A DNA stretch of 64,000 bases from Minisyncoccota bacterium (GTDB taxonomy: Bacteria; Patescibacteriota; Minisyncoccia; Moranbacterales; UBA2206): positions 5,300 through 69,299 of the forward strand of contig JARLIA010000001.1 of assembly GCA_031291955.1 (NCBI GenBank), read 5' to 3'. Below are positions 20,535 to 59,948 of this stretch, piece after piece. Position numbers and translations under genes: made by a program. The notes beneath the pieces are model-generated. The model was not told the origin of the DNA. It searched no databases and worked only from the letters and a program-made list of their open reading frames with translations. How positions within the stretch are numbered: position 1 is the first letter of the stretch; every line of letters begins with the position of its first letter.

Positions 20535-20629
20535 ACACTTTTATAACTAGCTCAAAAACATGAATACGTAAAGAGCGGGGCAAAAGCCTCGCTCAATTTG
20601 AAATTATTATATAATTTTGATTAACGCTT

Positions 20630-21073: not shown

Positions 21074-21328
21074 ATTTTATTTTAATTATTTATTAATGAT
21101 ATGTTATAATTCGCTAACTCGCATATTAATTTTACTTGAATTTTTCAAAGTGTCCACCGGGCTCTTTTGAAAAGTTATCCACAGGTCAAAACTTTGTTTA
21201 ATTTAGCCTTGTTCGAAAAACGCTTGCCGTGTTTGTGAGTTTTGTAAAAAAGTAAATCCCAGTTTTGTTCAATGGCAATTTGTGGTATGATCAAGATGTT
21301 AATATTTTAAGAATAAATCAAAAGCTTT

Positions 21329-21865: not shown

Positions 21866-21892
21866 AACTTGTCGGGGCAATATCAAGATAAA

Positions 21893-23029: not shown

Positions 23030-23080
23030 AGCAGCCTTTCACGGGTTTAATACTCGCTTTTTTTGTGCTAAGATTAAGCC

Positions 23081-24208: not shown

Positions 24209-24209
24209 G

Positions 24210-41590: not shown

Positions 41591-42073
41591 ATGTTTAATT
41601 TTTTTTCTATGGTTAGCAAAATAAAAAAAATAAAACCTCTCTTTGACATTAGGAAGCAGAACAAGCGAAAAATGTTTATCGTGTTGGTTTCTTTTCTCGC
41701 TGCCTTTGCCGTGGCTCATCTTTATGCCCTTCATTTTACCCATTACGTCTACATCAAGGGCTATCACATCCATCACTTTTATTTCGGCACAGTCGCTTTG
41801 GCGCTGGGCGGAATTTTGGGCATTTTGAATGACAGCCACCACAAACGGCGCATTGAGTTTGCCAGCGCGCTGATCGGAATCGGAATGGGATTGTTTGCCG
41901 ACGAAATCGGTCTGCTTCTCAATTGTACCAGCCAGAACCATCTTTGCGCTTATGCTTTCCCAGATACCGGTGACATCATTATGACCATCGCCATCATAAT
42001 CATTTTTCTAATTGCTTTAGCCGATTCGGACATTGAGGCCCTGAAGAAGAAATATTTCAAAAATAAAAGTTAA
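41591..42073 (+). CDS. His-rich membrane protein, function unknown
   Basis: It has 4 TM helices and a His-rich motif (HFTHYVYIKGYHIHHFYFG). Confidence 0.4.
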   Translation: MFNFFSMVSKIKKIKPLFDIRKQNKRKMFIVLVSFLAAFAVAHLYALHFTHYVYIKGYHIHHFYFGTVALALGGILGILNDSHHKRRIEFASALIGIGMGLFADEIGLLLNCTSQNHLCAYAFPDTGDIIMTIAIIIIFLIALADSDIEALKKKYFKNKS

Positions 42074-43608
42074 TCCAGTTCACTTACGACCGGCTTTTCA
42101 CGTTTCGCCATTTTAAGGAGGATATTCAAATCTTCCTTTTTTAATTCCCGCAGAAAATAAAGAATGGAAAGGTAGAGTGCGAACAGGATGGCCGACCAGA
42201 GAATAAAGAAATAGCTGTTGCGGGAAAAAGCGAAAGCGGCGACCGTCATGACCAGCGCGGCCATGATCATCTTCCAAAAACTTTTTGATTTGAATATATA
42301 TCCAAACTCATGGTAAGTATAGACAAGCGTAAAGAGCATGATCGCGAGAGCCATAAGAGCTGTCCCGGAAGCAGCACCGATGAGCCCGTATATTTTAATG
42401 AGAAAATAGGTGACAATTGTGTTGAGGAAAAGTCCGATGAGGGCGGCGTACATCGGAATCTTGACTTTGCCGGCACCATTAAGAATGAAAGTCAGGACGT
42501 AAAAAACAGTCAAAAATCCTTCGGCAAAAACATAAATCGACATCACCGGCGCCGAAAGTGCGAAGCGCTTAGAAAAGAAAACCACCATGAGAGGGAAAGA
42601 GAAATAAGACATCAGGATGCAAACGGGAATCAAAAGCATCACCAAAAAACGCAGAGATTGACTAACAATCTTTTTCGTTTCGGTGTCCTGTCCGGCTGAG
42701 GTCGTTTTGGAAACAGCCGGCAAAAGGACGATTGTGAGGGCGTAGAAAAGATTGTAGGGGATGGTGCCGACGGTGTAAGCCGCGTTATATAGTCCAGTTT
42801 GGATATCCGAACGGAGAATGCCCTTGACCAGATAAAGGTCGATGGTGTTTAAGAATTGGTAAGCGATCAAAAAAATCGTGACCGGCCAAGCGAAGGCGGC
42901 CAGTTTTTTCCAGTCAAATGAAGATTGTGAATTTTCCTGCGTAGAGACGCGATTAATCGCGTCTCTACCCGGCGCGACCTGGAATTCTTTCTTAATTTTA
43001 AATTTATCAATGGCTAATCCTAATAAAAATAATACGAACGGCGCGGCGGCATAACCCAAAATCGCTCCCTGAACGGCCAGTCCGCGCGGCCGGAGAAGCA
43101 GGGTCAGGCCAATGATGAAAACCATCCGCAAGACGCCCCGACTGGTTTTGAGCCAAGCTTGGATTTTAAATTTATGAAGGCCGGTGTAATAGTAGAAATA
43201 AAAAGAGGCTGCCGCAAAAGCCGGGATCACCAAAGTTGAAAGTCGAAATAGATTTGTCAGACTCGGATCATGAAGGATGCGCGCGATGACCGGCGAAAGA
43301 AAATAGAACGCGATCGTCACTACTCCGATCAGAATAATTTGGATTTTGATCGTTTGTTTTTTGATGGCAGCCACCATTCCTTTGTCTGTTTCGAAAATCT
43401 CGCTTAAATATTTGGACATGGCTGTGGGCACGCTCTGTCCGATCAGCACCACTGTCATAGTGGTCAGTGTTACGATGATTCCGAAAACGCCATATTCAGC
43501 CGGCCCCAAGACCCGCCCCATCGTCACCTGGATAACATAAGACGAGAGATTGAAAATAATCTCCGAGATAGTAACGATCAGCGTTGATTTGGCGAGAAAA
43601 TTAGGCAT
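42070..43608 (-). CDS. oligosaccharide flippase (Wzx-like, MOP/polysaccharide biosynthesis protein family)
   Basis: The product is 512 aa with about 14 TM helices and the polysaccharide-biosynthesis-protein architecture. It contains an internal 28-bp perfect palindrome at 42941-42968. Confidence 0.75.
   Translation of the reverse strand: MPNFLAKSTLIVTISEIIFNLSSYVIQVTMGRVLGPAEYGVFGIIVTLTTMTVVLIGQSVPTAMSKYLSEIFETDKGMVAAIKKQTIKIQIILIGVVTIAFYFLSPVIARILHDPSLTNLFRLSTLVIPAFAAASFYFYYYTGLHKFKIQAWLKTSRGVLRMVFIIGLTLLLRPRGLAVQGAILGYAAAPFVLFLLGLAIDKFKIKKEFQVAPGRDAINRVSTQENSQSSFDWKKLAAFAWPVTIFLIAYQFLNTIDLYLVKGILRSDIQTGLYNAAYTVGTIPYNLFYALTIVLLPAVSKTTSAGQDTETKKIVSQSLRFLVMLLIPVCILMSYFSFPLMVVFFSKRFALSAPVMSIYVFAEGFLTVFYVLTFILNGAGKVKIPMYAALIGLFLNTIVTYFLIKIYGLIGAASGTALMALAIMLFTLVYTYHEFGYIFKSKSFWKMIMAALVMTVAAFAFSRNSYFFILWSAILFALYLSILYFLRELKKEDLNILLKMAKREKPVVSELD
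42941..42968. repeat. 28-bp perfect palindrome inside the flippase CDS (GTAGAGACGCGATTAATCGCGTCTCTAC)
   Basis: Verified base by base. It encodes …PGRDAINRVST… in a predicted cytoplasmic loop of the Wzx-like protein. Confidence 0.9.
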
Positions 43609-43611: not shown

Positions 43612-44199
43612 CTATATTGATAAATTTTTTATTTCTTCAAAAATTTCTTCTTTTCCGCGGCTACCATCAATAACTTTCAAATTCCACTCGGAAATTTTGG
43701 CGTCATATAATTCTTTTTTCTTTGCCAGATATTCCAAACCCTGGTCCGGTTTTCTTTCACGAGACATGATGAGAGCAGGGGAGAGTTGGAGATAAATGGC
43801 CACATCAGGCGTGAGAATGCTGTCCGTAGTGGGAAAAAATTTTTGCCCACTACGCGATTCATCCAGATATTCGATATTCACCAGTGAATCATAAAAATAC
43901 CGATCGCTTAAAATATAATCATAACCGGATTTACGTAGTTGATTACGTAAACACCCAAAACGCCAAATGTCGATCCGCAAAAATATTTTCCGGAGCCAAA
44001 TCTGCAGCGGCGACGCTTTGGTCACGCTCTTGCTCTCGCCAGGGTTTTCGTTTTTACCTGACAATTTATTGGCCAGGGAGAAAGTTATCGCGTGGAAATA
44101 AAAAACTTTGGAACCATGCGATTCCAAATATTTTTGCAACAATTTTATCTGGGTTGATTTCCCGGATCCGTCCAGGCCGGAAATAGTAACAATCTTCAT
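43612..44199 (-). CDS. thymidylate kinase-family P-loop kinase (divergent)
   Basis: It has the Tmk-type P-loop (MKIVTISGLDGSGKSTQ), a DRY motif (ILSDRYFYDSLVN) and a lid-like segment (PDVAIYLQLSPALIMSRERKPDQG). It lacks the canonical REPGG motif. The start is taken at the internal ATG at 44199. Confidence 0.55.
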   Translation of the reverse strand: MKIVTISGLDGSGKSTQIKLLQKYLESHGSKVFYFHAITFSLANKLSGKNENPGESKSVTKASPLQIWLRKIFLRIDIWRFGCLRNQLRKSGYDYILSDRYFYDSLVNIEYLDESRSGQKFFPTTDSILTPDVAIYLQLSPALIMSRERKPDQGLEYLAKKKELYDAKISEWNLKVIDGSRGKEEIFEEIKNLSI

Positions 44200-44209
44200 A
44201 ACTTTAAAT

Positions 44210-45715
44210 CTAATACATAATGACTGCCACTGGTTGCATCTTGGCCACGACATGGGCGATGCCGTTGACTTCGACGCCTTCAATCACGCGGTTGATATCT
44301 TTGTAACGAGCGGAGTCTTGTTTAATAACGGTCGAGGATTGGGCATTGTAGAGTTTGACACCCTTAGCTGCCATCTTGGCGAATAATTCACTTTTATTCG
44401 CGATTGATTTTTCGTTCTTGTTCTGGCCTTTGCCGGTGCCGTGCGGGGCGGAAAAGAAACTTTCCTCGTTCCGGTCGGTGCCGACGCAAATGTAGGCATC
44501 AGTCGCCATAGAAGAGGGGATGAAGGCCGGTTCGCCGGTTTTTTTGTATACCGGATGCTTAGTCTTGGCTGGACCGAAAGCGCGGGAAGTGTTACTGCGG
44601 TGGACCCAGACATCTTGTCCAAAATGATTTTCTTTGGAAATCGAGATATGCGGCATGTCATAGACCAGATCCAGTTCTGGATCACGTCCGAACATATTTT
44701 TAATCGTCTCCGAAATGTTGTGGGTGATGACCGCCCGGTTAGCGGTGCCGAAGTTCGATGCGGCCGCCCGAGCTTGCATATAGAGCTTGCCGTCCGGTCC
44801 GTCGCCGTCATATTTCAAAAGCGATTCGTCTCCGGCCATATGATTTTTGATTTTTTCCTGCATTTTGCGGTAGGCCTCTTTTTTCCGGGTGCTGAAAGTC
44901 AACTTTCCCAAAGTCACCATCGCGGCCTGCGAAAAGTGTTCGCGTTTTTTGGCGGTGTGGGTATACATCGTATATTGCCCCAAAATTCCCGAGCCGGTGT
45001 GGATCATAAAAAGATACTGGCCTTTCTTGAGACCCATGATTTTAGCCGTCTCTGGATCAATGACGTCGCCGACTTTCATGAGATCCAAAAAGTGGTTGCC
45101 GGCCGCTCCCAGGACGCCGAGGCGAAATTTGGCAAAAAACAAGTAGAGTTTGGGAATGACGTCAAAAATATCCTGGCGCATTATCTCGCCTGTGAAAAAA
45201 TTTCCGCCGTTCTGGGTGTTTTCCAGTTCATTTTTGGTTTTGATTTTTAAATAATCAATGATAGCCGAAGTGCCTTTCCGGCAAACGTCCACCACGACAT
45301 TAAATGGCACCTTCGTACCCATAAATCTTTTGGTTGGCACGGACTCGACCAGTTCTTTGAATAATTTATCAACATTTTCTGGCGAAAAATTTTCCTCAGT
45401 CAGACTGGTTTTTATGAGGCGCATCCCACAGTTTGGATCGGAATCATTGACCTGGGGAAGGATATATTTTTCCGAAACAATCACCGTTCCGGAAGCATTC
45501 TTCCGGCCGGGCTTCGAACAGACATCTGGCATGGCGACCGTCTGGCGAAATAGAGTATTCTTGTTTGAAGCAACGTCTTCCGCTTTGGCAAAAGTTTCTT
45601 CGTCTGGCAAAAGATCCCGGCTCATGAAAAACCGGCTGGGAACAGACATCTTTTCCGTTTTGAAATCATATTGATGCGGAGTGATTTCCTTGAGATTTTT
45701 TTCTTTATAGCCCAT
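44210..45715 (-). CDS. rtcB: RtcB-family RNA 3'-phosphate/5'-OH ligase
   Basis: RtcB hallmarks are present: metal/GMP-site motifs (AMPDVCSKPG…; DPNCGMRL; HTGSGILG) and a C-terminal …SAPHGTGKG…KMQPVAVIMY resembling the conserved RtcB C-terminus. The 501-aa product is of archaeal/eukaryotic-type length. Confidence 0.75.
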   Translation of the reverse strand: MGYKEKNLKEITPHQYDFKTEKMSVPSRFFMSRDLLPDEETFAKAEDVASNKNTLFRQTVAMPDVCSKPGRKNASGTVIVSEKYILPQVNDSDPNCGMRLIKTSLTEENFSPENVDKLFKELVESVPTKRFMGTKVPFNVVVDVCRKGTSAIIDYLKIKTKNELENTQNGGNFFTGEIMRQDIFDVIPKLYLFFAKFRLGVLGAAGNHFLDLMKVGDVIDPETAKIMGLKKGQYLFMIHTGSGILGQYTMYTHTAKKREHFSQAAMVTLGKLTFSTRKKEAYRKMQEKIKNHMAGDESLLKYDGDGPDGKLYMQARAAASNFGTANRAVITHNISETIKNMFGRDPELDLVYDMPHISISKENHFGQDVWVHRSNTSRAFGPAKTKHPVYKKTGEPAFIPSSMATDAYICVGTDRNEESFFSAPHGTGKGQNKNEKSIANKSELFAKMAAKGVKLYNAQSSTVIKQDSARYKDINRVIEGVEVNGIAHVVAKMQPVAVIMY

Positions 45716-45720: not shown

Positions 45721-46836
45721 TTACATTTTTTCGTATGTTTGCTTATAAATCTCCGCGATTTTTTTAATGTCAAATCTTTCTTCGACAAATTTCCTCGCTT
45801 CCTGGCCGATGTTCGCGCGTTTTTCCGGTGACTTATATAAATCCAAAACCGCCGCGACCAATTGCGCTTGATTGCCTTTTTCTATTATAACAGAATTTTG
45901 TCCATTCGACAGCTCGGAAAGAATCGGCAAATCGGAAAGAATGACCGGTTTTTCGCAGGCCATGGCCTCCACGACTGCCAGGGGAATGTCAAATTTTCCT
46001 TTCATGTCGCTGACAGGAAATAAGCTCACGTCACATAGATTATAAACATCCGCCATTTTGTAGCTACCGTCGTCAAAAAAAGAAACTTTTTCGAGCAGAT
46101 TATTTTCTTCCAATTTTTTAACCACCTCGGTTTTTTTGCGGGCATCTTTCTCGTTCTTTATCCGGGCTGCCATAGACAATTTGGCGGCAGGGATTTTTTT
46201 GGCTACTTCGATAAAGCTATCAACAACAATATCGATTGCCCCCAGGCGCGTGTACTCGCCGGTAAAATTAATCACAAAATCTTTCTCGCCGATATTTTTC
46301 TTTTGCATCAAGGCGCTGTCCTTTTCCGCCTTCTTGTATTCTACAATGTCTATTCCCGGGTAGACGCGCTTGACGTTGCCAAATCCCAATGAGTTCAATT
46401 TGTTTTTGGCGTAATCGGAATAAGTAATGATGATATCTCCAAACATCAGCTTTTTTATTTCTTCATCAGAATATAAATCTTGGCGCAAAGTGGCGACCGT
46501 TTGGATGGTTCTGGTTTTTTTGGATTTAAGAAAATTTTTCAGGAAAAAAGAATTAAGCTTGGTCGGAGTGAAAAAGTGATGGGCGACGTCAAAAGCATTC
46601 TTATTCTTGAATTGAAAAAACAGCGATCTCAGTTTTTGGGAAAAGGTAAAATCGTTTTGCGAGGAAGTGTAGATCGGATGCTGAACGATATTTTTCCCCA
46701 ATTCCGGCAAAATTCCTTTGGTCAGAAGATGCATTTCGAGCGTATCCAAATTTCTGGCCAGATAATAGGCAAAATTTTTGGACGCCTCGTCCCACGGCGG
46801 CGCAATCGGCCGGGTAATGAGCAATATTTTTTTCAT
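45721..46836 (-). CDS. glycosyltransferase (GT-B fold, GT4-like)
   Basis: It has a C-terminal GT4 motif (EAMACEKPVILSDLPILSEL) and is the first gene of the minus-strand operon. Confidence 0.7.
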   Translation of the reverse strand: MKKILLITRPIAPPWDEASKNFAYYLARNLDTLEMHLLTKGILPELGKNIVQHPIYTSSQNDFTFSQKLRSLFFQFKNKNAFDVAHHFFTPTKLNSFFLKNFLKSKKTRTIQTVATLRQDLYSDEEIKKLMFGDIIITYSDYAKNKLNSLGFGNVKRVYPGIDIVEYKKAEKDSALMQKKNIGEKDFVINFTGEYTRLGAIDIVVDSFIEVAKKIPAAKLSMAARIKNEKDARKKTEVVKKLEENNLLEKVSFFDDGSYKMADVYNLCDVSLFPVSDMKGKFDIPLAVVEAMACEKPVILSDLPILSELSNGQNSVIIEKGNQAQLVAAVLDLYKSPEKRANIGQEARKFVEERFDIKKIAEIYKQTYEKM

Positions 46837-47056: not shown

Positions 47057-47413
47057 TCAAAAATTCTTATAAATATCTTCTTTGCCATTTCCGCTGTTCA
47101 CTTGGATATCCACTCTTCCCGAAACTGACGCTTCCGGTGCCACTACTTCCGCATTAGCGCCTTTTTTTATTTCCACGTCACCCTGCTTTACCGTCTCGCC
47201 ATTTTCCATCTCTTGCCAATGGAAACTGGTTTGGTCGCTATGGTTGGTGATTGTAAAATTGAGATTACTTGATTTCGGTTCAGTAAAAGCCAATGTCCAC
47301 CAGTCTTGGCCAAGATCGGGATTAGTCTGTTGGTTTGATTGGTAAAACAACCAGAAAGAACTGGCCATAAGAAGAACGATAATGAAAATTATTATATTTT
47401 TTTGTTGTTGCAT
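47057..47413 (-). CDS. small secreted/membrane-anchored protein, function unknown
   Basis: It has an N-terminal signal/anchor (IIIFIIVLLMASSFWLF) and lies directly downstream of the large membrane protein gene. Confidence 0.4.
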   Translation of the reverse strand: MQQQKNIIIFIIVLLMASSFWLFYQSNQQTNPDLGQDWWTLAFTEPKSSNLNFTITNHSDQTSFHWQEMENGETVKQGDVEIKKGANAEVVAPEASVSGRVDIQVNSGNGKEDIYKNF

Positions 47414-47414: not shown

Positions 47415-49361
47415 TTATTTTCGATAATAAACCGCTACGCCATCGGTGACGTAAATTTCGTTAAAATTATCCAATTTTACGAATTGGGAAGAATCATAAG
47501 ACGGATTGATCATTATAAAATCGGTCTTAGTACTGGCAAAACATTGATTGGCGTCGTCGGCGCCGGGATTTGAAATCATAACAAGCGTACAGAGTTTGCT
47601 CGGATCAGTAATGCCGTCATAGCGTTTGAAATAGCTGCGCGAAAGGGGATAATCATAACCGCGCATGAAGAATGATTTTATCCAGGTGTCGCCGGTCAGA
47701 TAATTATGGTCTTTCAAGATGACATCATTGTCGGTGCTATTTTTGTCCAAATACTGCGCTGCGGCAAAGACTTCGTTAAGCGGGGTGAAATTAGGCGCTT
47801 TCTTGAAAGCTTGAGCCGAGTCTGATAGTCCCTCAATAAGTACAAAAGCTAATATAATGATGAAAGCGCTTTTCAGAAGCGTCAATGGCACAAGGTTTTC
47901 TGCCACGGTTTTAGAATAATATTTCCATTCTACCTTACTTGGTTTAAACATAGCCCAAAAACCGTAGGCGGCTAGAATTGCCAACGGGTAAGACAAATAA
48001 TTGCCGATTCGATCGCTCGGTAAATTAACCAAGAGAAAATGCGGCTCAGTGGACATGATAAAAAGCATTACTGTCCAAGAAACCACAATGGCAATTCCCA
48101 AGTCTTTCCGCCGATAGGCTAAGACCAGGATAATAAGACCGATAATTCCCATCGCCGCCCGGGCTTCACCCATGGTGTTTTTGAGATTAGTGAGTGTGAG
48201 ACCAACCCGCGTGCCTTTGGTGGACACTCCGACAGCCGTATTTACCGCGCCTCCTTTGATGTAGCTTGGTGTGAAAATAACGAAAAAGAAAAACAGGCCG
48301 ACAAAAAAAGTGGCCATAACGCTCGGCGACCAGATGACCTGCCAGGCACTCAAAAATATTTTTTTGATATTTCCAAAATTGATCAGCAGATAAAAAACAA
48401 AAAGAAAGGCAAAAATGAAAAGGAAAATGAAAGCGGTCAGGTGGTGGGTATAAAACAGTCCGAAAGTGGTGAAAACTGCGAGCGCCAAAAACGACTTGGC
48501 TTCTTTTGACTGCGTTTCGACGCTATAGTTTCCTTCGCGCAAAAATTCGAAGGCCCGATAATAAAAATAAAACATCAGCGGCATGAGATAGTCGCCAATG
48601 ATGTTTCCTATGACGCCGCCGCTGATATATTTGGCCTGTGGAGATGTGACGGCATAAAGAACGCCCAAAAATAAAATGCTTAAAATCGCCACGGTCTTAT
48701 TTTTGAAAATGCGGATGGTCAGGATAAAAGCAGTCATGATTCCCAGAATGTTGACGAGAAAAAGAAACATCACCGGAAAAGCTGAAAAAACACTAAGACC
48801 GGTAATCATATATATCTCAGCCAGCGCCACGTGTTCGCCAATGATGAAAGTTGGGGAGCCGCCGTAATTGGTGACGGCGTGGGTTTCAGCAATCACTTTG
48901 GCCCAATAGGTGTGGTGGCCCATATCGGTGGCCGTCGGCGCTACCGTGCCGGTGAGATAGACTGTCCGAATAAAAATCGTCAGAAAAATAAAAAGCAGAA
49001 GCAGGATTAACTGGTTTTTGGAAAAAGAAAATAATTTTTTCGTTTCAGTCGACGCTTCGGAGGAAGAATCGAAAGCCGCTTTATTTTGCCTATGTTTGTA
49101 AATCCCGTAGCAGACCGCCGAGAATATCAGTGATCCCAAAATGGACGTCTCGGCTGTCAGGGGAATATGCGGGCGATAGTAAGCAAAGGCAATAAAATCC
49201 ATCACGACCAATCCCAGGGCGAAGGAAATGACAAATCTTTCCAAGGTGCTTAAAATTTTGCTTTTCCCAAAAATGGCCAAAAGCAAAAACCAGCCCGGCA
49301 AAAACATCACCAGAAAAATAGCGAGGTAAAATATTATTTGGTTATAGATAAAATCAATCAT
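47415..49361 (-). CDS. large polytopic membrane protein with a C-terminal extracytoplasmic domain, putative GT-C-type glycosyltransferase
   Basis: The product is 648 aa with about 13 TM helices and a soluble C-terminal domain of roughly 150 aa. The architecture resembles ArnT/PMT/YfhO-type membrane glycosyltransferases. I can see no decisive motif. Confidence 0.45.
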   Translation of the reverse strand: MIDFIYNQIIFYLAIFLVMFLPGWFLLLAIFGKSKILSTLERFVISFALGLVVMDFIAFAYYRPHIPLTAETSILGSLIFSAVCYGIYKHRQNKAAFDSSSEASTETKKLFSFSKNQLILLLLFIFLTIFIRTVYLTGTVAPTATDMGHHTYWAKVIAETHAVTNYGGSPTFIIGEHVALAEIYMITGLSVFSAFPVMFLFLVNILGIMTAFILTIRIFKNKTVAILSILFLGVLYAVTSPQAKYISGGVIGNIIGDYLMPLMFYFYYRAFEFLREGNYSVETQSKEAKSFLALAVFTTFGLFYTHHLTAFIFLFIFAFLFVFYLLINFGNIKKIFLSAWQVIWSPSVMATFFVGLFFFFVIFTPSYIKGGAVNTAVGVSTKGTRVGLTLTNLKNTMGEARAAMGIIGLIILVLAYRRKDLGIAIVVSWTVMLFIMSTEPHFLLVNLPSDRIGNYLSYPLAILAAYGFWAMFKPSKVEWKYYSKTVAENLVPLTLLKSAFIIILAFVLIEGLSDSAQAFKKAPNFTPLNEVFAAAQYLDKNSTDNDVILKDHNYLTGDTWIKSFFMRGYDYPLSRSYFKRYDGITDPSKLCTLVMISNPGADDANQCFASTKTDFIMINPSYDSSQFVKLDNFNEIYVTDGVAVYYRK

Positions 49362-50009
49362 TTATTTTTTCCCTTCCCATTCATCAAAAAATTGTTTGAG
49401 ATATTTTTTCATAAATTCGTGCCTGTTTTTAGCTATTCGCTTGGCTGTTTTGGTATTCATTCTGTTTTTCAAGAGAAGTAATTTTTCGTAAAAATGATTA
49501 ATAGACGTGCTTTTGGCATTTTTATATTTCTCCGGGCTGGTGTGTGAAACGGGTTTTATTTTTGGATCATAAAATGGTCTGTCGGCATGAGCGCCATAGG
49601 AAAACACTCTAGCGATGCCAATAGCACCAATCGCATCAAGTCGATCAGCATCTTGCGCTATTTTACCCTCCAATGTGCTTATTTTGTTTTTAACTTTTGC
49701 GCCTTTGAATGAAATGTTAGCAACAATGCTTTCTATGTGACTTTCAATATTCTTGTCCAATTTGAATTGTTCAAGAAATTCCTTGATTTTTTCTTGAGCT
49801 AATTTTTCGTCAAAAAATTTATGGTCGAACACATCGTGCAAAAGAGCGGACATTTCCACTACGAACATATCAGCCGTTTCTTCTTTGGCCAATTTGAGGG
49901 CCATTTTCTGAACGCGTTCCGTATGTTGCCAATCATGACCGCTTTCGCCATTCTCCAATTTCTTTCTGGCAAATGAAATAGTTTTTTTGATGATTTCTTT
50001 TTTATTCAT
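49362..50009 (-). CDS. HD-domain phosphohydrolase
   Basis: HD motifs are present (GHDWQHTERV…; SALLHDVFDHK). Confidence 0.8.
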   Translation of the reverse strand: MNKKEIIKKTISFARKKLENGESGHDWQHTERVQKMALKLAKEETADMFVVEMSALLHDVFDHKFFDEKLAQEKIKEFLEQFKLDKNIESHIESIVANISFKGAKVKNKISTLEGKIAQDADRLDAIGAIGIARVFSYGAHADRPFYDPKIKPVSHTSPEKYKNAKSTSINHFYEKLLLLKNRMNTKTAKRIAKNRHEFMKKYLKQFFDEWEGKK

Positions 50010-50022: not shown

Positions 50023-51156
50023 TCAGTGAGTACCAGCGGTTCTGATAATTTCTTCCAAGTATCTTCTTGAAATTTTTTCCCAGGTGTAATTCTCTTCAAC
50101 AAATTTCCGCGCCTTTTTCCCGAAGGTTTTTTCAAATTCCGATCCGGCTTCAAATATTGTCTCGATTTTTTTTACCCATTGCTCGGCGTTGCCGGGTTCA
50201 ACCAAAAAACCGTTCTGGCCGTCTTTTACAGCATCTTTCAAGCCTTCCATCTCAGAAGCCATCACCATTCGCCCGCAGGCCGCGCCTTCAATTGCGGTGA
50301 TGCCAAATCCCTCCATCGATCCGGACACTTTGATGTTCGGAGAAATGTAAAGATCGCAAGCGTTAAAAAGCACTTTCATATCCGCACGGGGCATATTTAT
50401 GAATAATTTCACCCTCTCGGATAATTTTAATTCTTTTACAGCGTTAACGCAACGCGGATAATCATTCTCGTCGCCGGCCGTATTCTTAGCAACTCCGCCA
50501 CCGGCCGCTATCAAGATGTACTCAGCGGGAAGCTGTGGCATTACATTCCTAATAAACCACTCCAGTCCCTTGTGTTTAACGTATCGTCCGCCGCGAAAGA
50601 TCACTTTCTTCCCAGCCAGATCCATGCCGACAACTTTTTCCAGATCTTCCCAGGTGGCCGTTTGGCGGATTTCTTCCATCTGTACGCCATTGGGAATAAA
50701 GACGCATTTCTCCCTCGGAATACCACTCTTGACCGCCTGCTCAATCGTTTCGTTTCCGACCATGATCAGTTTGTCAGAATTTTGGAGAGCGGGGATATTG
50801 ACTGTCCGGTATATTTTTCCTAAAAGCGATTTTTTATAAGCGAAAGTAATATCCAGACCATGGACAATCGAAATATATTTTTTCTTCGGATAAAATATTT
50901 TCCAAAATATCCCCAAAGGCGCCAGCACCCCGTCGCCGAAAAGAACGACGTCAAAACGAGGAACAACGAAAAGACCCCGGACAAGAATCCAAGGCAAAAA
51001 AATCGGCAGGCGTTTTTTTCCGCCTTTATTGGCGATGATTTTGGTCGGCGTAATCTTGGCCAGGGCGTTGGCGATACCGTAGTTCTGATTTTCAATCCCA
51101 CCCAGAATCGGCGGATAAGCCCGAGATATAAAAAGAATTTTTGGACGATCCTTCAT
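50023..51156 (-). CDS. glycosyltransferase family 4
   Basis: The GT4 pattern is present (MKDRPKILFISRAYPPILGGIENQ…; EGFGITAIEGAACGRMVMASE). Confidence 0.8.
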   Translation of the reverse strand: MKDRPKILFISRAYPPILGGIENQNYGIANALAKITPTKIIANKGGKKRLPIFLPWILVRGLFVVPRFDVVLFGDGVLAPLGIFWKIFYPKKKYISIVHGLDITFAYKKSLLGKIYRTVNIPALQNSDKLIMVGNETIEQAVKSGIPREKCVFIPNGVQMEEIRQTATWEDLEKVVGMDLAGKKVIFRGGRYVKHKGLEWFIRNVMPQLPAEYILIAAGGGVAKNTAGDENDYPRCVNAVKELKLSERVKLFINMPRADMKVLFNACDLYISPNIKVSGSMEGFGITAIEGAACGRMVMASEMEGLKDAVKDGQNGFLVEPGNAEQWVKKIETIFEAGSEFEKTFGKKARKFVEENYTWEKISRRYLEEIIRTAGTH

Positions 51157-51159: not shown

Positions 51160-52146
51160 TTATTCCTTTCCGTATTTGTCTTTCTTCCATTGATACATCA
51201 ATTCTTCCGTCAATTGGCGGCTGGATTTGATCATGTCGGCAATAAAGGCAAAGATGAGCAATTGGATCCCCAAGAAAAGTGCGATGGATGAAAAAGTGAT
51301 GGTGTGAAGATAAGGAGAAATTTTGAAAGTCTGTAAATAGCGATACAAAAAATCAATAAAACCCAAAATGCCCACCGCCATAAAAAAGAGACCCGGCCAG
51401 CCGAAAAATTTCATCGGCCGGACATCACGGATAGCTTTTAACATTACTTTTGCCGAATTGGAAACAAAGCCTCGGACGGATCTGACAATTTTGGATTTCC
51501 GGTCGGAAAAATAGATCGTTTTTACCGGCACCCATTCCAATTTCAGATTTTTTCCAATGGCGTCGATGATGGTTTCTTGAGTGTAGGTAAAATGCACATT
51601 GGTCAAATTTAACCGCAAAAGCGCTTCGCGGCTGTGCGCCCGAAAGCCGCAAGTCAGATCGGAAATATGGTAGCCAAGGAAAAACCCGGTGATAGATGAA
51701 GCGAAACGATTCAGAAAATCCTTTATCCAAGGAATGTTTTTCGATTCTTCATCGCCGAAACGGTTGGCAATGACCATGTCGGATTTTCCGGCCAAGATAG
51801 GAGAGAGGAGTTTTGGGATATCTTCCGGATCGAACTGGCCGTCCGCGTCGATGTTGACAAAAAGGTCGGCGCTGTTTTCCAAGGCGCTTTCGGCGGCGCG
51901 CTTGAAAGCATAGGCCAGGCGGCGATTGGGCTTATAGGATATGACAATGTCCACGCCAGCTTCCCGAGCCTTTTCCACCGTTTTGTCGCTTGAGCCGTCG
52001 TCCACCAGTTGGATCAACTTCTCGGTAATAATTTTTCCCGCGCCGGAAACATAAAAAGCCGCCCCAAAACTTTTCTTGATGCGCTGGATCGTTTCACTGA
52101 TCTTCTTTTCTTCGTTATAGGCGGGGATGTTGACGATCAATTTCAT
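51160..52146 (-). CDS. glycosyltransferase family 2 with C-terminal TM helices (GtrB/polyprenyl-phosphate sugar synthase-like)
   Basis: The GT-A motifs are present (MKLIVNIPAYNEEKKI…VDDGSSDKT…DADG) plus two C-terminal TM helices. The start is taken at the internal ATG at 52146. Confidence 0.8.
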   Translation of the reverse strand: MKLIVNIPAYNEEKKISETIQRIKKSFGAAFYVSGAGKIITEKLIQLVDDGSSDKTVEKAREAGVDIVISYKPNRRLAYAFKRAAESALENSADLFVNIDADGQFDPEDIPKLLSPILAGKSDMVIANRFGDEESKNIPWIKDFLNRFASSITGFFLGYHISDLTCGFRAHSREALLRLNLTNVHFTYTQETIIDAIGKNLKLEWVPVKTIYFSDRKSKIVRSVRGFVSNSAKVMLKAIRDVRPMKFFGWPGLFFMAVGILGFIDFLYRYLQTFKISPYLHTITFSSIALFLGIQLLIFAFIADMIKSSRQLTEELMYQWKKDKYGKE

Positions 52147-52151
52147 AATTT

Positions 52152-52394
52152 TTATTTTTTCTTGATTATTAATTTCGGATCGACACAATTAAAATTACAT
52201 TTGGCGTTGTCGATGCCCTGATGGACAATGTTGTCCGTGCAAGATGCCAGCTTAGCCTGACATTGGTCTTTGCTATAGGTAAAATATTGTTTGTTGATCT
52301 CGTAGCCCATGAGTCCCATAACCCAATAGGCAAGGGCGACAATCACAACGATCCAAATGATTGATTTAATCATATCTAAAATTATGCTTTTCAT
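52152..52394 (-). CDS. small membrane protein with a 4-Cys C-terminal tail
   Basis: There is one TM (IIWIVVIVALAYWVMGLMG) and a Cys pattern C-x5-C…C-x3-C at the C-terminus. Confidence 0.4.
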   Translation of the reverse strand: MKSIILDMIKSIIWIVVIVALAYWVMGLMGYEINKQYFTYSKDQCQAKLASCTDNIVHQGIDNAKCNFNCVDPKLIIKKK

Positions 52395-53871: not shown

Positions 53872-55035
53872 ATGAAGAAAAACAAAAACATCGTCATTGG
53901 CATCAATGCAAGTTTCATCAGAAAGCCCAACAATGGCATCGGGCAAGTGACTGCCAATTTCCTAAAAACTTTGGCACGAATCACGAATCACGAATCACGA
54001 ATCATTTTGTATCTAGAAGAAGATCTGCCGCGTGATTTCAAGTTGCCGAAAAATTTTGAAAAAAGGATTTTTTTGCCGCCTTGGAAACGCGATGATTTGA
54101 TCCGCAAAATCTGGTGGGAAAAATATTCTCTGCCGAAAAAAATCAAAAAAGACAAGTGTGATGTTTTTCTCAGTCTCTACCAGTGCCCGACGATTTTAGA
54201 GGGTGACACAAAACACATAATGCTCGTTCATGATATTGTTCCTAAATTATTTCCCGAATATCTGGATAATTCGCGCAAGAAACATTATTGGCAGCTGACC
54301 GAATATGCGATCGCAAGGACCGACAAAGTTCTCACTGTTTCGCGCCACACGGAAAAAGATCTGATCAACTATCTGAATATTCCCGCCGGAAAAATCACAC
54401 CCAACTATATCGATGTTGACGAGATTTACAAAAAAAGCGTTTCTCAAAAAGAATCCGCCCGGGTACTGAAAAAATATAAACTGAAACCAGGCTACATCCT
54501 GGCCGGCGGGGGAATGGAGATTCGGAAAAACGTCGAAGGAGTTTTTCATGCCTACAAATTCATGCTGGAGAGAGGGCTGGCGGAAGATCTGCCGCCGCTG
54601 GTCGTCTTCGGAAAAATCCTGCCCAATCTTTCCCTGGCTTTCGACGCGGAAAATTTCTTGAAAGTCCTGAATATGACTAAGAAAGTGAGGCTTCTGGATA
54701 TGGTGCCGCAAAAAGATATGCCGGCTCTTTACAAAAACTCGTCCTTTTTCGTCTACCCATCGTATTATGAAGGATTTGGCATGCCGCCGCTCGAAGCTAT
54801 GAACCAAGGGAAGTCCGTCATTGTTTCTAAAAACTCATCTCTCCCCGAAGTGGGCGGCGACGGCGTCCTCTATTGCCAAGCCGACGACATTTATGATATC
54901 GCTATGGTCATGAAAAACGTCCTCTCCAACCCGCAACTCCGCGAAGATTTGTCTCGCCGGGCCAAACTCCAGGCTGAAAAATTCTCGTGGGAAAGGTTTG
55001 TGAAGAAAGTTCTGAATATAGTCAATGAGATCTGA
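53872..55035 (+). CDS. glycosyltransferase family 4
   Basis: The GT4 pattern is present (MKKNKNIVIGINA…; YEGFGMPPLEAMNQGKSVIVSKNSSLPEVGG). A (CACGAAT)4 heptamer repeat sits near the 5' end. TATAAT lies just upstream of the ATG at 53872. Confidence 0.8.
   Translation: MKKNKNIVIGINASFIRKPNNGIGQVTANFLKTLARITNHESRIILYLEEDLPRDFKLPKNFEKRIFLPPWKRDDLIRKIWWEKYSLPKKIKKDKCDVFLSLYQCPTILEGDTKHIMLVHDIVPKLFPEYLDNSRKKHYWQLTEYAIARTDKVLTVSRHTEKDLINYLNIPAGKITPNYIDVDEIYKKSVSQKESARVLKKYKLKPGYILAGGGMEIRKNVEGVFHAYKFMLERGLAEDLPPLVVFGKILPNLSLAFDAENFLKVLNMTKKVRLLDMVPQKDMPALYKNSSFFVYPSYYEGFGMPPLEAMNQGKSVIVSKNSSLPEVGGDGVLYCQADDIYDIAMVMKNVLSNPQLREDLSRRAKLQAEKFSWERFVKKVLNIVNEI
53975..54004 (+). repeat. perfect heptanucleotide tandem repeat (CACGAAT)x4 inside the GT4 CDS
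   Basis: Counted directly as cacgaat cacgaat cacgaat cacgaat ca. It encodes ARITNHESRII. The unit length is not a multiple of 3. Confidence 0.85.
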
Positions 55036-55552
55036 AAATAGAAAATCAAATCGTTTGGTGGGATATGATTATTCGCAAGAGGGAATGTACTTCGTCACTT
55101 TTTGCACGAAGGAAAGGATTGAATGGTTTGGTGAAGTAAAAAATGGCGAAATGCTCTTAAACAAATATGGCGAGATCACTGAACAACAATTAAGCTGGCT
55201 GGCGAAACAATATAAATACATCAATATTGATTGCAAAATTGTAATGCCAAATCACGTACATACCATTTTGGAAATTCTCCCAGACGTTGAAATCGTAGGG
55301 ACAGGTCGCGACCTGTCCCTACGATTTCAACAATCGAAAATAAAACCGCTGCCCGAATTAATCGGCGCCCTGAAAACCACATCATCAAAATTGATTCACA
55401 GAAATGGATTTAATGATTTCGCCTGGCAAAGATCCTATTGGGATCGCATTATCCGCGACGAAGCAGAACTGAACCGTATCCGCGAATATATTTTCAATAA
55501 CCCGCAAAATTGGGAGCAAGATCGAAACAACTCGGAAAATATTTTTATGTAA
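55025..55552 (+). CDS. Y1 HuH transposase-family protein (IS200/RAYT-like, probably single-copy or domesticated)
   Basis: It has the RAYT-type N-terminus (GYDYSQEGMYFVTFCTKERIEWFG), the HuH motif (VMPNHVHTILEI), and a Tyr motif (FAWQRSYWDRIIRDEAELNRIREYIFNNPQNW). It overlaps the upstream GT4 stop by 11 nt. Confidence 0.7.
   Translation: MRSENRKSNRLVGYDYSQEGMYFVTFCTKERIEWFGEVKNGEMLLNKYGEITEQQLSWLAKQYKYINIDCKIVMPNHVHTILEILPDVEIVGTGRDLSLRFQQSKIKPLPELIGALKTTSSKLIHRNGFNDFAWQRSYWDRIIRDEAELNRIREYIFNNPQNWEQDRNNSENIFM
55286..55331. repeat. 46-bp perfect palindrome inside the HuH-transposase-like CDS
   Basis: The sequence is GTTGAAATCGTAGGGACAGGTCG|CGACCTGTCCCTACGATTTCAAC, and I checked both halves base by base. 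It lies between the HuH and Tyr motifs and encodes …VEIVGTGRDLSLRFQQ…. Confidence 0.9.
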
Positions 55553-55580: not shown

Positions 55581-57158
55581 ATGTTAAATGTCAATCATTT
55601 AAATAGACCAAAAACTTATTTGCTGATCGCCAATGTCCTTTTGGTTTTCTTTTTGATATTGCTCGGAAATTTTAAGGTCGTTCCTTTGGACACAGGCGAT
55701 TTTGTTTTTTTCGCTCTTTTGGTTTTTATGCTGGCCATCTACCGGTCAGGCTGGGCGTTTTTGATTTTTGTCGGACTCATTCCCTTGGAAAATATCAACC
55801 TCGCACCGGCCGAGCTGGAAATGACAATCCGGCCGTACCAATTTCTGGGCACCTTTATCATCGCAGCGCTTTTGGTGAGATTTTTCACCAAAAGATTAAA
55901 TTTTATCCCGGCCAAATTGAAATTGCCGGACTATTTGGTGATTGTTATGACGCTCGCCGGATTTCTGAGTGTGGTCACCGCGCCGAACAAATTAGCCTCC
56001 CTAAAACTGGCCGTAATATTTGCCAGCTTCGCTTTTTTATATTTCCTGGTCCGGAATTTTATCCAAAACACCGACGATCTCAAAAAAATAATCCCATTCT
56101 TTTTGAGTTCGTCAGCCGTCGTTATTTTTTACGGCATCTGGCAGAACTGGGCATACCTCCATGGCCGCAATTTTTTCGAAGCCATGCCCGGCCGCCCGAA
56201 CGGAACTTTCACTGAAGCGGATTGGCTGGGAATGTTCATCGTATTAGTTATTTCTGCTACGTATTGCATAATTCAATATTTATCGCAAAATATTTTTTCT
56301 AATAAAGCTAGTCAAATTTTCAATTTTCAATTTTCAATTTCTAAATTTTTAAATTATCTTCTGCTCGTTATTTCATTCATTCTCCTCATCCTCACCGTGT
56401 CGCGCAGTGCCTGGCTGGCGGCGCTTTTCGCGACATTGATGTTTTTGTTTATTTTTTTAACCGATCTGCGCTTTCGGAATTGGCAATGGAGAAACACGGC
56501 ATTTTCCGGCTTGAAAATACTGGCGTCACTAGTCATCGCTCTCGGCGCAATTTATATTTTTCATCTGACCAACTTCCAACTAGGAAGTCGCGCGACGAGC
56601 GCCGGCACCGGACTCCAGCAGATTACCATCGCTTGCGAAAAAAATGTCAATTTACCGGAAAAAATAAACGATAATTCCGAACTGGAAAAATATGATTGCC
56701 AACAGATCAATTTGCAAGACATCGCGGCCGATAAAGTCCAGGGGAAATATGTCACTACGATTTATCGCAACGACCCGAACATCGCCACCCGCAGCGTCAT
56801 TTATCAAAAGTCTTGGCAACAGATAAAAAATAATCCCATCTTGGGAATTGGGTGGGGGAATATCAGCCAAATTTTGGGCACGGACGCCCGCGGCGTACCC
56901 TTAAATTCGTCTAATATTTTTTTGGAAACCTGGCTCGGCGCCGGCCTTGCAGGATTTCTGGCGTTGGTGATTCTTTTGGGCTATATTTTATTCACTGCTG
57001 TCAAAAATTATTTTTATACTCAAGATGATTTACAAAAAACGACGAGTCTTTTCATAATAATCAGCTGGTTCGGATTGATTATTGCCAACCTTTTTAACGC
57101 CGGAATATTCCTAGGGATATTTTGGGTCTGGCTGGCCATTGCGCAGGTAAGTAATTAA
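55581..57158 (+). CDS. O-antigen ligase/polymerase family membrane protein (Wzy_C domain)
   Basis: It has about 12 TM helices and a Wzy_C-type periplasmic loop (NPILGIGWGNISQILG…NIFLETWLGAGLAGFLALV). Confidence 0.7.
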   Translation: MLNVNHLNRPKTYLLIANVLLVFFLILLGNFKVVPLDTGDFVFFALLVFMLAIYRSGWAFLIFVGLIPLENINLAPAELEMTIRPYQFLGTFIIAALLVRFFTKRLNFIPAKLKLPDYLVIVMTLAGFLSVVTAPNKLASLKLAVIFASFAFLYFLVRNFIQNTDDLKKIIPFFLSSSAVVIFYGIWQNWAYLHGRNFFEAMPGRPNGTFTEADWLGMFIVLVISATYCIIQYLSQNIFSNKASQIFNFQFSISKFLNYLLLVISFILLILTVSRSAWLAALFATLMFLFIFLTDLRFRNWQWRNTAFSGLKILASLVIALGAIYIFHLTNFQLGSRATSAGTGLQQITIACEKNVNLPEKINDNSELEKYDCQQINLQDIAADKVQGKYVTTIYRNDPNIATRSVIYQKSWQQIKNNPILGIGWGNISQILGTDARGVPLNSSNIFLETWLGAGLAGFLALVILLGYILFTAVKNYFYTQDDLQKTTSLFIIISWFGLIIANLFNAGIFLGIFWVWLAIAQVSN

Positions 57159-58586: not shown

Positions 58587-59948
58587 ATGTCGTACTTAGG
58601 AAAAGGGTCGCGCAGTAATTCTTTCGAAAGAAGTTCGAGCACTCAGAAAAAATTCTGGAAAAAACGCTGGTTCAAAATCGCGGCTCCGATTATTTTGCTA
58701 ATTCTTATCGTTGGTACAGCCTTTGCCTGGAAAACCAACTCATTTTTGAACAAAATCTCCAGTGGCGGTCTTCTGGCGGCCGTGGTCCACAGTTTGCCGG
58801 GTGCTGACAATAATCTAAAAGGTCAAAAAGAAGGCCGTATCAATATCGTAGTCATGGGCATGCGCGGAGCCAGTGATCCAAACGGCGGAACATTGGCTGA
58901 TTCTATCGAAGTGGTCAGCGTTGATCCGCAAGCCAACAAAGTTTCAATGATCTCTTTGCCGCGTGATCTTTATGTCGACAACCCGGCCACCGGCAACCAG
59001 ACCAAGTTGAATGCTGTTTATGCCTACGGAGAACAAAAGGGCAAAGGCCAAGGAATTAAATATATGGAACAGGAAGTCCAAACCATCACTAGTCAGCCGA
59101 TCCAATACGGCGTAGTCGTAAATTACACTGCTTTCCAAAAAATCATCGATACCATCGGCGGCGTTCAAATCATCCTGGACAAACCTTTTGAAGAAGCTGT
59201 TCAGTTTGATCAGCCGCATCCCTGTGATTCTTTCTTTTCCGTCCCGACCGGCCAAACCCAGATCAAGACCAAAAAATATTTCAGCAAAGAAACCAACATG
59301 TATAAAACCCGGGCGGTAGCCAGTTATCCGATGTGCACGGCGCCAAAAGACACCCTGGAATGCGGCGGCGATTTCAAGCTGCCGGCCGGCACCCAAACCT
59401 TAAACACCCAGCAAACTCTTTGTTATGTCCGCGCGCGGGAAACTTCCAATGATTTTGCTCGAGCGGGCCGCCAGCAACAAGTGATCCAAGGAATAAAGAA
59501 CAAACTCTTGACCCTGGGAACACTTACTGATTTTTCCAAAGTTAATGGCATCATCGATGGCCTGGGTGACAATATCCAGACCGATATGCAATCCTGGGAA
59601 ATCCAAAGTTTCTTCAACCTCTATTCCCAAATGAAAGGCTACACTTTGTATGCTCGTGTCGTCGACGCCAGTAATGATCCGAACATCGGATTGGTAGTGG
59701 GAAAGAGTGGTACACCAGCTGGTGACATTCTGCTGCCCAAAACCGGGAACTACGATCAATTCAAAACGCTTTTCTCCAACATCTTTACAATGAGTCCGCA
59801 GGAAAAAGAAAATCCGGGTGACGCAAGTTCATCCGGCGCCAATATGCCAGCTTCGCCGCAAACAGCGTCTCCCGCTTCCTCCACAGTAACCCCAGGCGCA
59901 ACGTCTTCAACTTCAACAACCCCCGCCTCAGCGACAACTTCAAATTAA
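58587..59948 (+). CDS. LytR-CpsA-Psr (LCP) family cell-wall glycopolymer ligase
   Basis: It has an N-terminal TM and the LCP core (RINIVVMGMRGASDPNGGTLADSIEVVSVDP…VSMISLPRDLYV). The C-terminal tail is Ser/Thr/Pro/Ala-rich. Confidence 0.85.
   Translation: MSYLGKGSRSNSFERSSSTQKKFWKKRWFKIAAPIILLILIVGTAFAWKTNSFLNKISSGGLLAAVVHSLPGADNNLKGQKEGRINIVVMGMRGASDPNGGTLADSIEVVSVDPQANKVSMISLPRDLYVDNPATGNQTKLNAVYAYGEQKGKGQGIKYMEQEVQTITSQPIQYGVVVNYTAFQKIIDTIGGVQIILDKPFEEAVQFDQPHPCDSFFSVPTGQTQIKTKKYFSKETNMYKTRAVASYPMCTAPKDTLECGGDFKLPAGTQTLNTQQTLCYVRARETSNDFARAGRQQQVIQGIKNKLLTLGTLTDFSKVNGIIDGLGDNIQTDMQSWEIQSFFNLYSQMKGYTLYARVVDASNDPNIGLVVGKSGTPAGDILLPKTGNYDQFKTLFSNIFTMSPQEKENPGDASSSGANMPASPQTASPASSTVTPGATSSTSTTPASATTSN

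Follow-up and report, generated by a model that had tools for sequence, protein, structure and literature searches.

A conserved envelope-glycan gene block in Moranbacteria that holds a divergent RtcB-family protein and a Tmk-fold kinase

Within a stretch of 64,000 nucleotides from a Minisyncoccota bacterium (contig JARLIA010000001.1 of assembly GCA_031291955.1, referred to at its full length as the window), four genes on the minus strand lie head to tail and encode a family 4 glycosyltransferase (GT4), an RtcB-family protein, a P-loop kinase resembling thymidylate kinase (Tmk), and a Wzx-type flippase. The gaps between them are 5, 10, and 3 nt, and each junction can be read directly from the DNA. 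The GT4 gene ends in TAA, 5 nt before the ATG of rtcB; rtcB ends in codons for VIMY and a TAG, 10 nt before the ATG of the kinase gene; and the TAG of the kinase gene is followed, after 3 nt, by the ATG of the flippase gene. Together with Pfam matches, these junctions bear out an original prediction about this DNA, which had named the four genes and their spacing. The unit is the 3′ end of a longer run of minus-strand genes, referred to here as the block, which is listed below in the direction of transcription.

51160..52188, minus strand: family 2 glycosyltransferase (GT2) with a C-terminal membrane region, of the polyprenyl-phosphate glycosyltransferase type (AglJ/PpgS/ArnC-like); PF00535, 74.5 bits.
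50023..51156, minus strand: GT4 glycosyltransferase, here GT4b; PF00534, 93.4 bits; kept in the block.
49362..50009, minus strand: HD-domain phosphohydrolase; PF01966, 41.2 bits; PRK10119-like, 89.9 bits, under the cut-off.
47415..49361, minus strand: DUF6541/DUF1616 polytopic membrane protein, presumed to be a GT-C-like glycosyltransferase; PF20176, 36.6 bits; kept in the block.
47057..47413, minus strand: small protein of 118 aa with a hydrophobic N-terminal segment; no match in Pfam or NCBIfam.
45721..46836, minus strand: GT4 glycosyltransferase, here GT4a, with the N-terminal motif RPIAPPWDEASKN; PF00534, 62.4 bits.
44210..45715, minus strand: RtcB-family protein of 501 aa, class A of a Moranbacteria-specific clade; PF01139, 250.7 bits.
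43612..44199, minus strand: Tmk-fold P-loop kinase of 195 aa, of a clade that lacks the REPGG segment; PF02223, 41.3 bits.
42070..43608, minus strand: Wzx-type flippase of the MOP type; PF01943 (Polysacc_synt), 86.5 bits; MurJ and MatE families also match.

For the kinase, a mechanical listing of open reading frames (ORFs) gives a TTG start at 44283, overlapping rtcB; the ATG at 44199 is taken as the start because all homologues begin at the MKI/MKL methionine. The GT2 that opens the block, and that occupies the same place in most Moranbacteria loci, has AglJ, PpgS, and ArnC-like families as its best NCBIfam matches, each under its cut-off. A homologue of the 118-aa protein lies between the DUF6541 and GT4a genes in most loci. 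The HD-domain phosphohydrolase is a lineage-specific insertion between GT4b and DUF6541, found among the loci compared only in a contig whose proteins are 100% identical (L001).

The conservation of the block was followed with a kinase-alignment scan of one genome per GTDB species, which matched 152 species and returned 80 loci. Window proteins were placed on the loci by tblastn, and 81 distinct loci were compared. A protein in a ‘Candidatus Pacebacteria’ metagenome-assembled genome (GCA_031291895.1) matches the kinase at 100% identity, and the relatives of the kinase are labelled, nearly without exception, Moranbacteria, Moraniibacteriota, or Parcubacteria. Most loci keep the full order of GT2, GT4b, DUF6541, small protein, GT4a, RtcB, kinase, and flippase. 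The repetition of the four-gene order in many independent genomes is far beyond chance, and since the genes 3′ of the flippase vary between loci, the block itself stands out from its surroundings. The arrangement is thus conserved, and not accidental.

Within the block, the closest partners are the kinase with the flippase and RtcB with GT4a. Of the 74 loci with enough sequence, 73 have the flippase gene no more than 1.5 kb 3′ of the kinase gene (1.7 kb in the remaining one), and in 57/59 GT4a lies no more than 1.5 kb upstream of RtcB. Where the block is broken, the break separates RtcB from the kinase. In 54 of 70 loci no more than 0.7 kb parts RtcB from the kinase downstream of it, in eight the two are split by 0.8–6 kb of inserted genes, and in the other eight RtcB is missing from the sampled flank. 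Translocated kinase–flippase pairs adjoin unrelated genes (iscS/nifU-like, cysS-like, or murC/murG-like). The original prediction had allowed that an adjacency of rtcB and tmk could be coincidental should the two genes prove unlinked in related genomes; in most of these genomes they are linked.

Many GTDB records titled ‘uncultured Bdellovibrionales bacterium’ (binchicken assemblies; L014, L015, L025, L027, L033, and others) carry a Moranbacteria-type block, with kinase identity of 50–62%, and their organism label looks wrong.

The kinase matches PF02223 (Thymidylate_kin) over the full profile, above the cut-off of 27 bits, and the top 50 Foldseek matches of its AlphaFold2 model (pLDDT 87.7) in the PDB are all thymidylate kinases, at TM scores of 0.6–0.73. 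Its P-loop, SGLDGSGKST, has the Tmk-type Asp, and it carries an SDRY motif and a lid with Arg147 and Arg149. The REPGG segment is missing. In an alignment with T. maritima Tmk, the kinase residues F-H-A-I-T lie opposite K-R-E-P-G, and F35-H36-A37, which replace the R-E-P of REPGG, are invariant in the family. These features agree with the earlier description of a Tmk-like P-loop, DRY motif, and lid without REPGG. Against the NCBIfam equivalog TIGR00041 the protein reaches 35.4 bits, under the cut-off of 83.25, and only the P-loop is matched (residues 3–34). Further invariants of the family are I67, R70, D77, D104, N108, and I109. We take I67, R70, D77, D104, and N108 to align with positions that line the dTMP site and hold other residues in Tmks, and D104, N108, and I109 presumably align with the S..YQ positions that contact dTMP in bacterial Tmks; the register is uncertain in both cases. 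In the helix spanning residues 64–90 the alignment is ambiguous, so that no substrate is called from the sequence. Judged from its motifs, the clade appears to keep the machinery of phosphoryl transfer (P-loop, DRY, lid Arg) around a rebuilt acceptor site, and the DR motif, found clade-wide, hints at a phosphate-bearing acceptor of the kind used by nucleoside monophosphate (NMP) kinases.

A subset of the Moranbacteria kinases (for example P0010, P0034, P0077, and P0092) has a Cys-rich insertion, DFRNKYCLICKLLGKC, immediately C-terminal to the FHA motif (alignment A1, columns ~58–75). This insertion, which the window kinase lacks, may be a small metal-binding knuckle.

These features bear on the simplest explanation of the gene, that it encodes the divergent and only dTMP kinase of the lineage, maybe with relaxed specificity, and lies beside rtcB and wzx by neutral accident. 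The whole-profile match above the gathering score and the exclusively thymidylate-kinase structural matches favour this, as does the near-universal presence of the family in Moranbacteria (the 152 GTDB species), and every cell requires dTDP. No second Tmk-like gene was found by tblastn in the window, in ~1.3 Mb of the 80 Moranbacteria loci, or in other loci (~2 Mb in total), although this search, made with T. maritima and E. coli Tmk as queries, has low power, the expectation being about two chance hits at best. In Parcubacteria, a canonical tmk is in any case reported to be often missing, with tmk, cmk, and gmk described as poorly represented (Nelson & Stegen, PMC4508563); a literature search on tmk in Moranbacteria gave no relevant work. 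The explanation is opposed by the failed equivalog cut-off (35 versus 83 bits), by the invariant FHA in place of REPGG and the other invariants that differ at the presumed dTMP-site positions (register uncertain), and by the movement of kinase and flippase genes as one pair. The relatives of the kinase in other phyla also oppose it, as set out below, and we consider it improbable. The protein has a Tmk fold and is probably not an ordinary dTMP kinase.

A HMMER search of 1.84 billion cluster representatives returned graded relatives of the kinase, from 56% down to ~30% identity. Those at 31–45% identity share the motifs DG.GK[ST]T, DRYFYD, and P.PD and the non-REPGG architecture, and the RtcB-linked loci score 144–166 bits against the A3 kinase profile. 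Some relatives are fused to other domains: one to PF14907, annotated as an ‘uncharacterised nucleotidyltransferase’ (P0261), and another to an APH phosphotransferase domain (P0234). A profile of the distant members collected ~2,800 proteins from Chloroflexi, Daviesbacteria, other Patescibacteria, and others.

The gene neighbourhoods of these relatives are informative. In Ardenticatenaceae and a related metagenome contig, the kinase follows a GT4a-like gene (with a further GT4 before it in some cases) and a PF14907 gene, and is itself followed by LPG_synthase_TM, a flippase-like domain, with GT2 and PMT_2 (GT-C) genes around. The order in the Chloroflexi loci L087, L088, and L090 is GT4a-like, PF14907, kinase, LPG_synthase_TM; in L097 it is PF14907, kinase, GT4a-like, LPG_synthase_TM. 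In loci of the candidate phyla radiation (CPR), namely L089, L170, and L171, a single cluster holds GT2, PF14907, and kinase genes along with genes for UbiA, a PHP-methyltransferase, and GT-C/AftD-like proteins; PF14907 adjoins the kinase in L170 and L171, and UbiA and the PHP-methyltransferase intervene in L089. A Patescibacteria contig (L172) has the kinase followed by a Polysacc_synt flippase, with the pair standing alone. In addition, a published analysis noted that a Tmk/PF14907 pair ‘unusually’ flanks the phosphoenolpyruvate mutase of a phosphonate cluster (bioRxiv 10.1101/2021.04.07.438883).

GT4a of the window is 28–34% identical to the GT4s of L087, L088, and L097 (E 1e-50 to 1e-61), for which it is the best match among the window GT4s; by sequence comparison, the GT4 beside these Tmk-like/PF14907 pairs is its specific orthologue. 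PF14907 was found in eight loci by tblastn and in L170 and L171 by look-up, all of them outside Moranbacteria; in the window and L001–L086, tblastn detected none. RtcB is present in 10 metagenome loci and ~75 Moranbacteria loci, and among the loci searched PF14907 and RtcB never co-occur. Elsewhere the order is thus GT4a, [PF14907], kinase, [LPG_synthase_TM], and in Moranbacteria it is GT4a, [RtcB], kinase, [Wzx]. The Moranbacteria RtcB occupies the slot of the PF14907 nucleotidyltransferase, and the two families have in common that they catalyse nucleotidyl transfer.

We conclude that the kinase clade serves in pathways that decorate glycans or glycolipids, and its automatic annotation as ‘thymidylate kinase’ is probably wrong. 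The presence of the clade in glycan and GT-C clusters next to PF14907 speaks against two roles that the original prediction had put forward, the plain housekeeping Tmk and the polynucleotide kinase. For a housekeeping role, the large-genome Chloroflexi, where we infer that the clade member is a paralogue of the housekeeping enzyme, and the fusions to nucleotidyltransferase or APH domains are further difficulties, as is the fact that the tightest partner of the kinase is a flippase.

Two side observations concern this wider clade. The layout of L089, L170, and L171, where the pair is accompanied by the prenyltransferase UbiA, a fused PHP-methyltransferase, and membrane proteins that are large or AftD-like, resembles that of polyprenyl-phospho-pentose donor pathways for GT-C enzymes. 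A third non-REPGG subgroup, from soil metagenomes (L119, L123, L140, L145, L152, L155, L158, and others), has kinases of ~220–270 aa. Upstream of these is a conserved gene set of another make-up, for proteins of ~350 aa and ~135 aa (the latter STAS-like as judged by eye) and a small secreted protein; GT2 and GT4 genes are often downstream, and long ORFs that resemble MOP flippases (by inspection alone) are near in four loci.

The same data bear on a role of RtcB and the kinase together in RNA repair or as an anti-toxin, counter-defence module, with the kinase serving as a polynucleotide kinase or supplying RtcB with nucleotide. The tight adjacency kept in 54 of 70 loci would suit such a module, divergent RtcB alleles could mirror an arms race, and recycling of the NMP that leaves RtcB would in principle be open to a Tmk-like NMP kinase. 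A 5′-kinase, however, would make 5′-phosphate ends, destroying the 5′-OH substrate of RtcB (PMC8051266), so that RtcB could not join the products. Of the families that had been proposed for checking, RtcB (PF01139) and Thymidylate_kin (PF02223) do match, and PNK and Clp1 do not: in Pfam and NCBIfam the kinase has no PNK, Clp1, Zeta, or other PNK-type match, only Tmk and weak P-loop matches. The suggestion of counter-defence found no backing in a PADLOC scan, which gave weak P-loop matches for the kinase and no match for RtcB, GT4a, the flippase, or the HD protein. When the block breaks, the kinase stays with the flippase and not with RtcB, and in other phyla the clade is tied to glycan genes in loci without RtcB. 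We regard this explanation as very improbable. Both it and the housekeeping Tmk fit the data less well than either a glycan role for the pair or a genuine RNA ligase, to which we now turn.

The RtcB-family protein matches PF01139 far above the cut-off of 27 bits, over profile positions 10–424 of 426, and its PDB matches are T. thermophilus and P. horikoshii RtcB (E 1e-47 to 1e-46). Residues were mapped by phmmer sequence alignment to P. horikoshii RtcB (PhoRtcB), without structural superposition. In PhoRtcB, the M1 metal is held by Cys98, His234, and His329, the M2 metal by Asp95, Cys98, and His203, and the nucleophile is His404 (PMC9745838). The window protein retains all of these (D93, C96, H208, H239, H356, and H425), and Asn202 is kept as N207. 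The sites for nucleotide and substrate differ. Glu206 and Lys480 contact guanine (PMC9745838), and their counterparts are D211 and, at the penultimate position, M500. Arg238, Arg190, and His242 contact or clamp the 5′-OH strand (PMC8051266), and are replaced by G243, Phe194, and Q247, respectively; Asn330 is changed to Ile. Mutation to Ala of E. coli Arg189, the counterpart of Arg238, slows sealing 200-fold (PMC8051266). The derived motifs are fixed or nearly so in class-A homologues: HTGSGILGQ in 120/120, GNHFLD in 117/120, and the C-terminal V[LI]MY in 115/120. RtcB chemistry proceeds by transfer of NMP from a His-NMP adduct to a phosphomonoester, followed by attack of a hydroxyl (PMC9745838, PMC8051266). 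In the Moranbacteria clade, the alignment suggests that this phosphoryl and nucleotidyl chemistry is intact, with altered nucleotide and acceptor sites.

Three classes of RtcB share the one slot. Class A, which includes the window protein, is 72–88% identical to it, and the RtcB homologue search found only class-A Moranbacteria proteins among its matches. Class B (45–52% identical) has the same derived changes and, in addition, Ala at the M2 ligand Asp95. Class C (35–39% identical, ~440 aa) also has Ala for Asp95, with SHF for NHF and HEIG for HGTG. Two copies in the slot are possibly pseudogenes: one is truncated to 355 aa, without NHF and HTGS (L081:8603–9670), and the other is split into two ORFs (L085:8516–9839).

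The distribution of these classes points to exchange at the slot. The kinase, flippase, and GT4a have a mean identity of ~55–58% whether compared within or between RtcB classes, from which it follows that the distribution of classes A and B does not track the phylogeny of the neighbouring genes. For RtcB itself, mean identity is 78% within A, 61–62% within B, and 50% between A and B. In a comparison of L069 (class B) with L071 (class A), the flank proteins are 88.8% identical and the RtcB proteins 51.6%; for L007 (B) and L008 (A) the values are 81% and 55%. At the DNA level, flanks are 77–80% identical and rtcB ~64%. It looks like one old rtcB allele has been replaced by another through conserved flanks. 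A long blastn high-scoring segment pair had raised the suspicion that the L069 RtcB is a chimera; this was rejected, as block-wise protein identity shows uniform divergence. Allele replacement is, in our judgement, often met in surface-polysaccharide loci but seldom among housekeeping RNA enzymes.

There is a conservative way to read these data: RtcB could be a genuine tRNA or rRNA ligase captured in an ancestral Moranbacteria block, with only the kinase and flippase serving glycans and the co-transcription functionally meaningless. The full-length domain, the intact class-A metal ligands and His nucleophile, and the very strong purifying selection on class A are what would be expected of such an enzyme, and the linkage of RtcB to the kinase is looser than that of the kinase to the flippase. 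CPR genomes are compact, with mixed operons, and gene positions are conserved in Parcubacteria (PMC4508563). A captured ligase, on the other hand, would not readily account for the adjacency of GT4a and RtcB in nearly every locus, for an RtcB exactly at the PF14907 position of homologous modules with no locus holding both, or for the clade-wide loss of the guanine contacts and of the Arg238 clamp on the 5′-OH strand. Nor would it account for a class B without the Asp95 ligand, a class C with degenerate motifs in the same slot, or the swapping of alleles between close relatives. The usual companions of an RNA ligase are also absent: the Pfam scan of ORFs in the 64-kb window turned up neither RtcA nor RtcR nor archease. 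This absence, together with a literature search on RtcB in CPR or Patescibacteria that gave nothing relevant, supports the earlier remark that the pairing of rtcB with this kinase is unusual. We think it rather unlikely that RtcB is simply a captured ligase.

The reading that we favour, and put forward tentatively as one with a little under an even chance of being right, is that the kinase and RtcB act together in a lipid-linked glycan pathway, encoded by a conserved eight- to nine-gene envelope-glycan block of Moranbacteria in which RtcB stands in place of PF14907. The more specific proposal, for which our confidence is lower, is that RtcB has been recruited from RNA ligation to envelope glycan or glycolipid synthesis, where it would replace PF14907 and use its His-NMP chemistry with a nucleotide other than, or beyond, GTP.

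Several points weigh against a joint glycan role. Class-A RtcB has lost none of the catalytic residues that guanylylation chemistry is known to require, and the absence of Arg238 might be made good by R198 (aligned to Q194). Class-A RtcB is also the most conserved protein of the block, with a mean identity of ~78% versus ~56% for its neighbours, which fits a core RNA enzyme too. The adjacency of RtcB and the kinase is broken in ~23% of loci, and the kinase–flippase pair occurs without RtcB nearby. Small CPR genomes mix unrelated genes in tight operons and, to our knowledge, no RtcB is known to act beyond nucleic acids.

The substrates and chemistry of the favoured pathway can be sketched in three steps. 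The kinase would make or recycle a phosphorylated intermediate. RtcB, through its His-NMP chemistry, would then nucleotidylate a phosphomonoester and/or join the phosphomonoester to a hydroxyl, so that a lipid-linked glycan would gain a nucleotide-activated or phosphodiester-linked substituent, and Wzx would flip this product to the outer face. Two versions of the division of labour may be envisaged. In the first, the kinase installs or extends a phosphate that RtcB would nucleotidylate or ligate into a phosphodiester; in the second, it is an NMP kinase that would recycle the NMP released by RtcB or PF14907. Outside Moranbacteria, the kinase would work beside the GT4a orthologue, the Pol-beta-type nucleotidyltransferase PF14907, and a flippase-like membrane protein.

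Genes for envelope glycans fill ~20 kb around the four-gene unit in the Pfam scan of window ORFs. Upstream, on the same strand, are the small protein, DUF6541, HD hydrolase, GT4, and GT2 genes of the block and then a UDP-glucose dehydrogenase gene, beyond which come a GT4, a Wzy_C, another GT4, and an LCP ligase gene; on the opposite flank are GT2, GT4, and VTT/DedA protein genes. Three further features of the window help to place the flippase.

55581–57158: Wzy_C protein.
58587–59948: LCP protein.
26613–28268, plus strand: genuine MurJ, 307 bits.

The possibility that the flippase at 42070–43608 is the MurJ of the lineage, forming a tmk–murJ housekeeping pair, is ruled out by the true MurJ. 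The presence of the latter elsewhere in the window makes the flippase of the unit a second, Wzx-type protein and not the lipid II flippase; with Wzy_C, LCP, and UDP-glucose dehydrogenase genes nearby, it follows that this flippase serves a secondary glycopolymer. A scan for promoters and terminators over 41.5–53.9 kb gave counts near the shuffled expectation and no convincing internal terminator in that region, and was not used.

Other features of the window were noted in passing. A second glycan cluster (16795–28268, plus strand) comprises a Bac_transf initiating transferase, three GT4s, two ORFs without a family, a DUF4012 protein, and then MurJ. A remnant of an IS200-like Y1 transposase, with a partial Pfam match, lies at 55025–55552 (plus strand) between a GT4 and the Wzy_C gene. 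The SecD homologue at 4223–6028 (plus strand) has a PPIC-type peptidyl-prolyl isomerase (Rotamase) domain inserted between SecD_1st and the P1-head, an unusual fusion. A bacterial class-A RNase P RNA is encoded at 16414–16755 (plus strand, 140 bits), and no tRNA genes were found across the 64-kb window. Directly 3′ of pheS/pheT, at 10822–11391 (plus strand), is a 189-aa AAA_33 P-loop kinase-like protein; the AAA_33 family includes domains of the polynucleotide-kinase type, and this protein is unrelated to the Tmk-like kinase.

The wider significance of the block lies in both of its unusual members. RtcB is known solely as an enzyme that joins nucleic-acid ends, so that a glycan role, if true, would be its first outside nucleic acids; an RtcB with a remodelled active site, fixed in a surface-glycan operon, is a testable candidate for new RtcB chemistry. 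The kinase belongs to a widespread clade that goes by the automatic annotation ‘thymidylate kinase’ but whose companions are flippases, GT-C enzymes, and PF14907 proteins. Metabolic reconstructions of CPR bacteria, in which nucleotide dependence on hosts is inferred from whether tmk is present, need to take account of this. The clade also bears on how CPR episymbionts build their surfaces.

Comparison with known systems places the block among several of them. Like the Wzx/Wzy loci for cell-wall glycopolymers that have an LCP ligase, the window has a Wzx-type flippase, Wzy_C, LCP, UDP-glucose dehydrogenase, and many GT4s and GT2s; we know of no such locus with RtcB or a Tmk-fold kinase as a conserved member. 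Like the RNA ligases of P. horikoshii, E. coli, and human (RTCB), the window RtcB has the full PF01139 domain, the ligands of the binuclear metal centre (Cys, three His, and Asp), and the H-G-x-G nucleophile motif. It differs from them in the changed guanine and 5′-OH-strand contacts and Asn330, fixed in 115–120 of 120 close homologues, in having sister classes at the same slot without Asp95, and in its partners, which are glycosyltransferases and a flippase and not RtcA, RtcR, archease, PrfH, or Rsr. The kinase shares with Tmk (PF02223/TIGR00041) the fold, the P-loop with its Asp, the DRY motif, and the Arg lid; it differs in the lack of REPGG, in its other invariants at positions aligned to the dTMP site, in its score under the equivalog cut-off, and in being paired with a lipid flippase and having relatives fused to PF14907 or APH.

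A parallel in another kind of pathway is found in the synthesis of the lasso peptide pseudomycoidin, where the kinase PsmK acts first and the uncharacterised nucleotidyltransferase PsmN then acts on phospho-serine (PMC6993621). There too a kinase adds a phosphate and an enzyme of the nucleotidyltransferase fold builds on it; the analogy is one of logic alone, since the substrate is a peptide and PsmK is of the HPrK type, not the Tmk type. The closest counterpart is the pair of Tmk-like kinase and PF14907 in glycan/GT-C and phosphonate clusters, which has a kinase of the same clade, an orthologous GT4a, a flippase-like partner, and GT2 and GT-C neighbours. The differences are that Moranbacteria have RtcB for PF14907, and Wzx for the LPG_synthase_TM of Chloroflexi.

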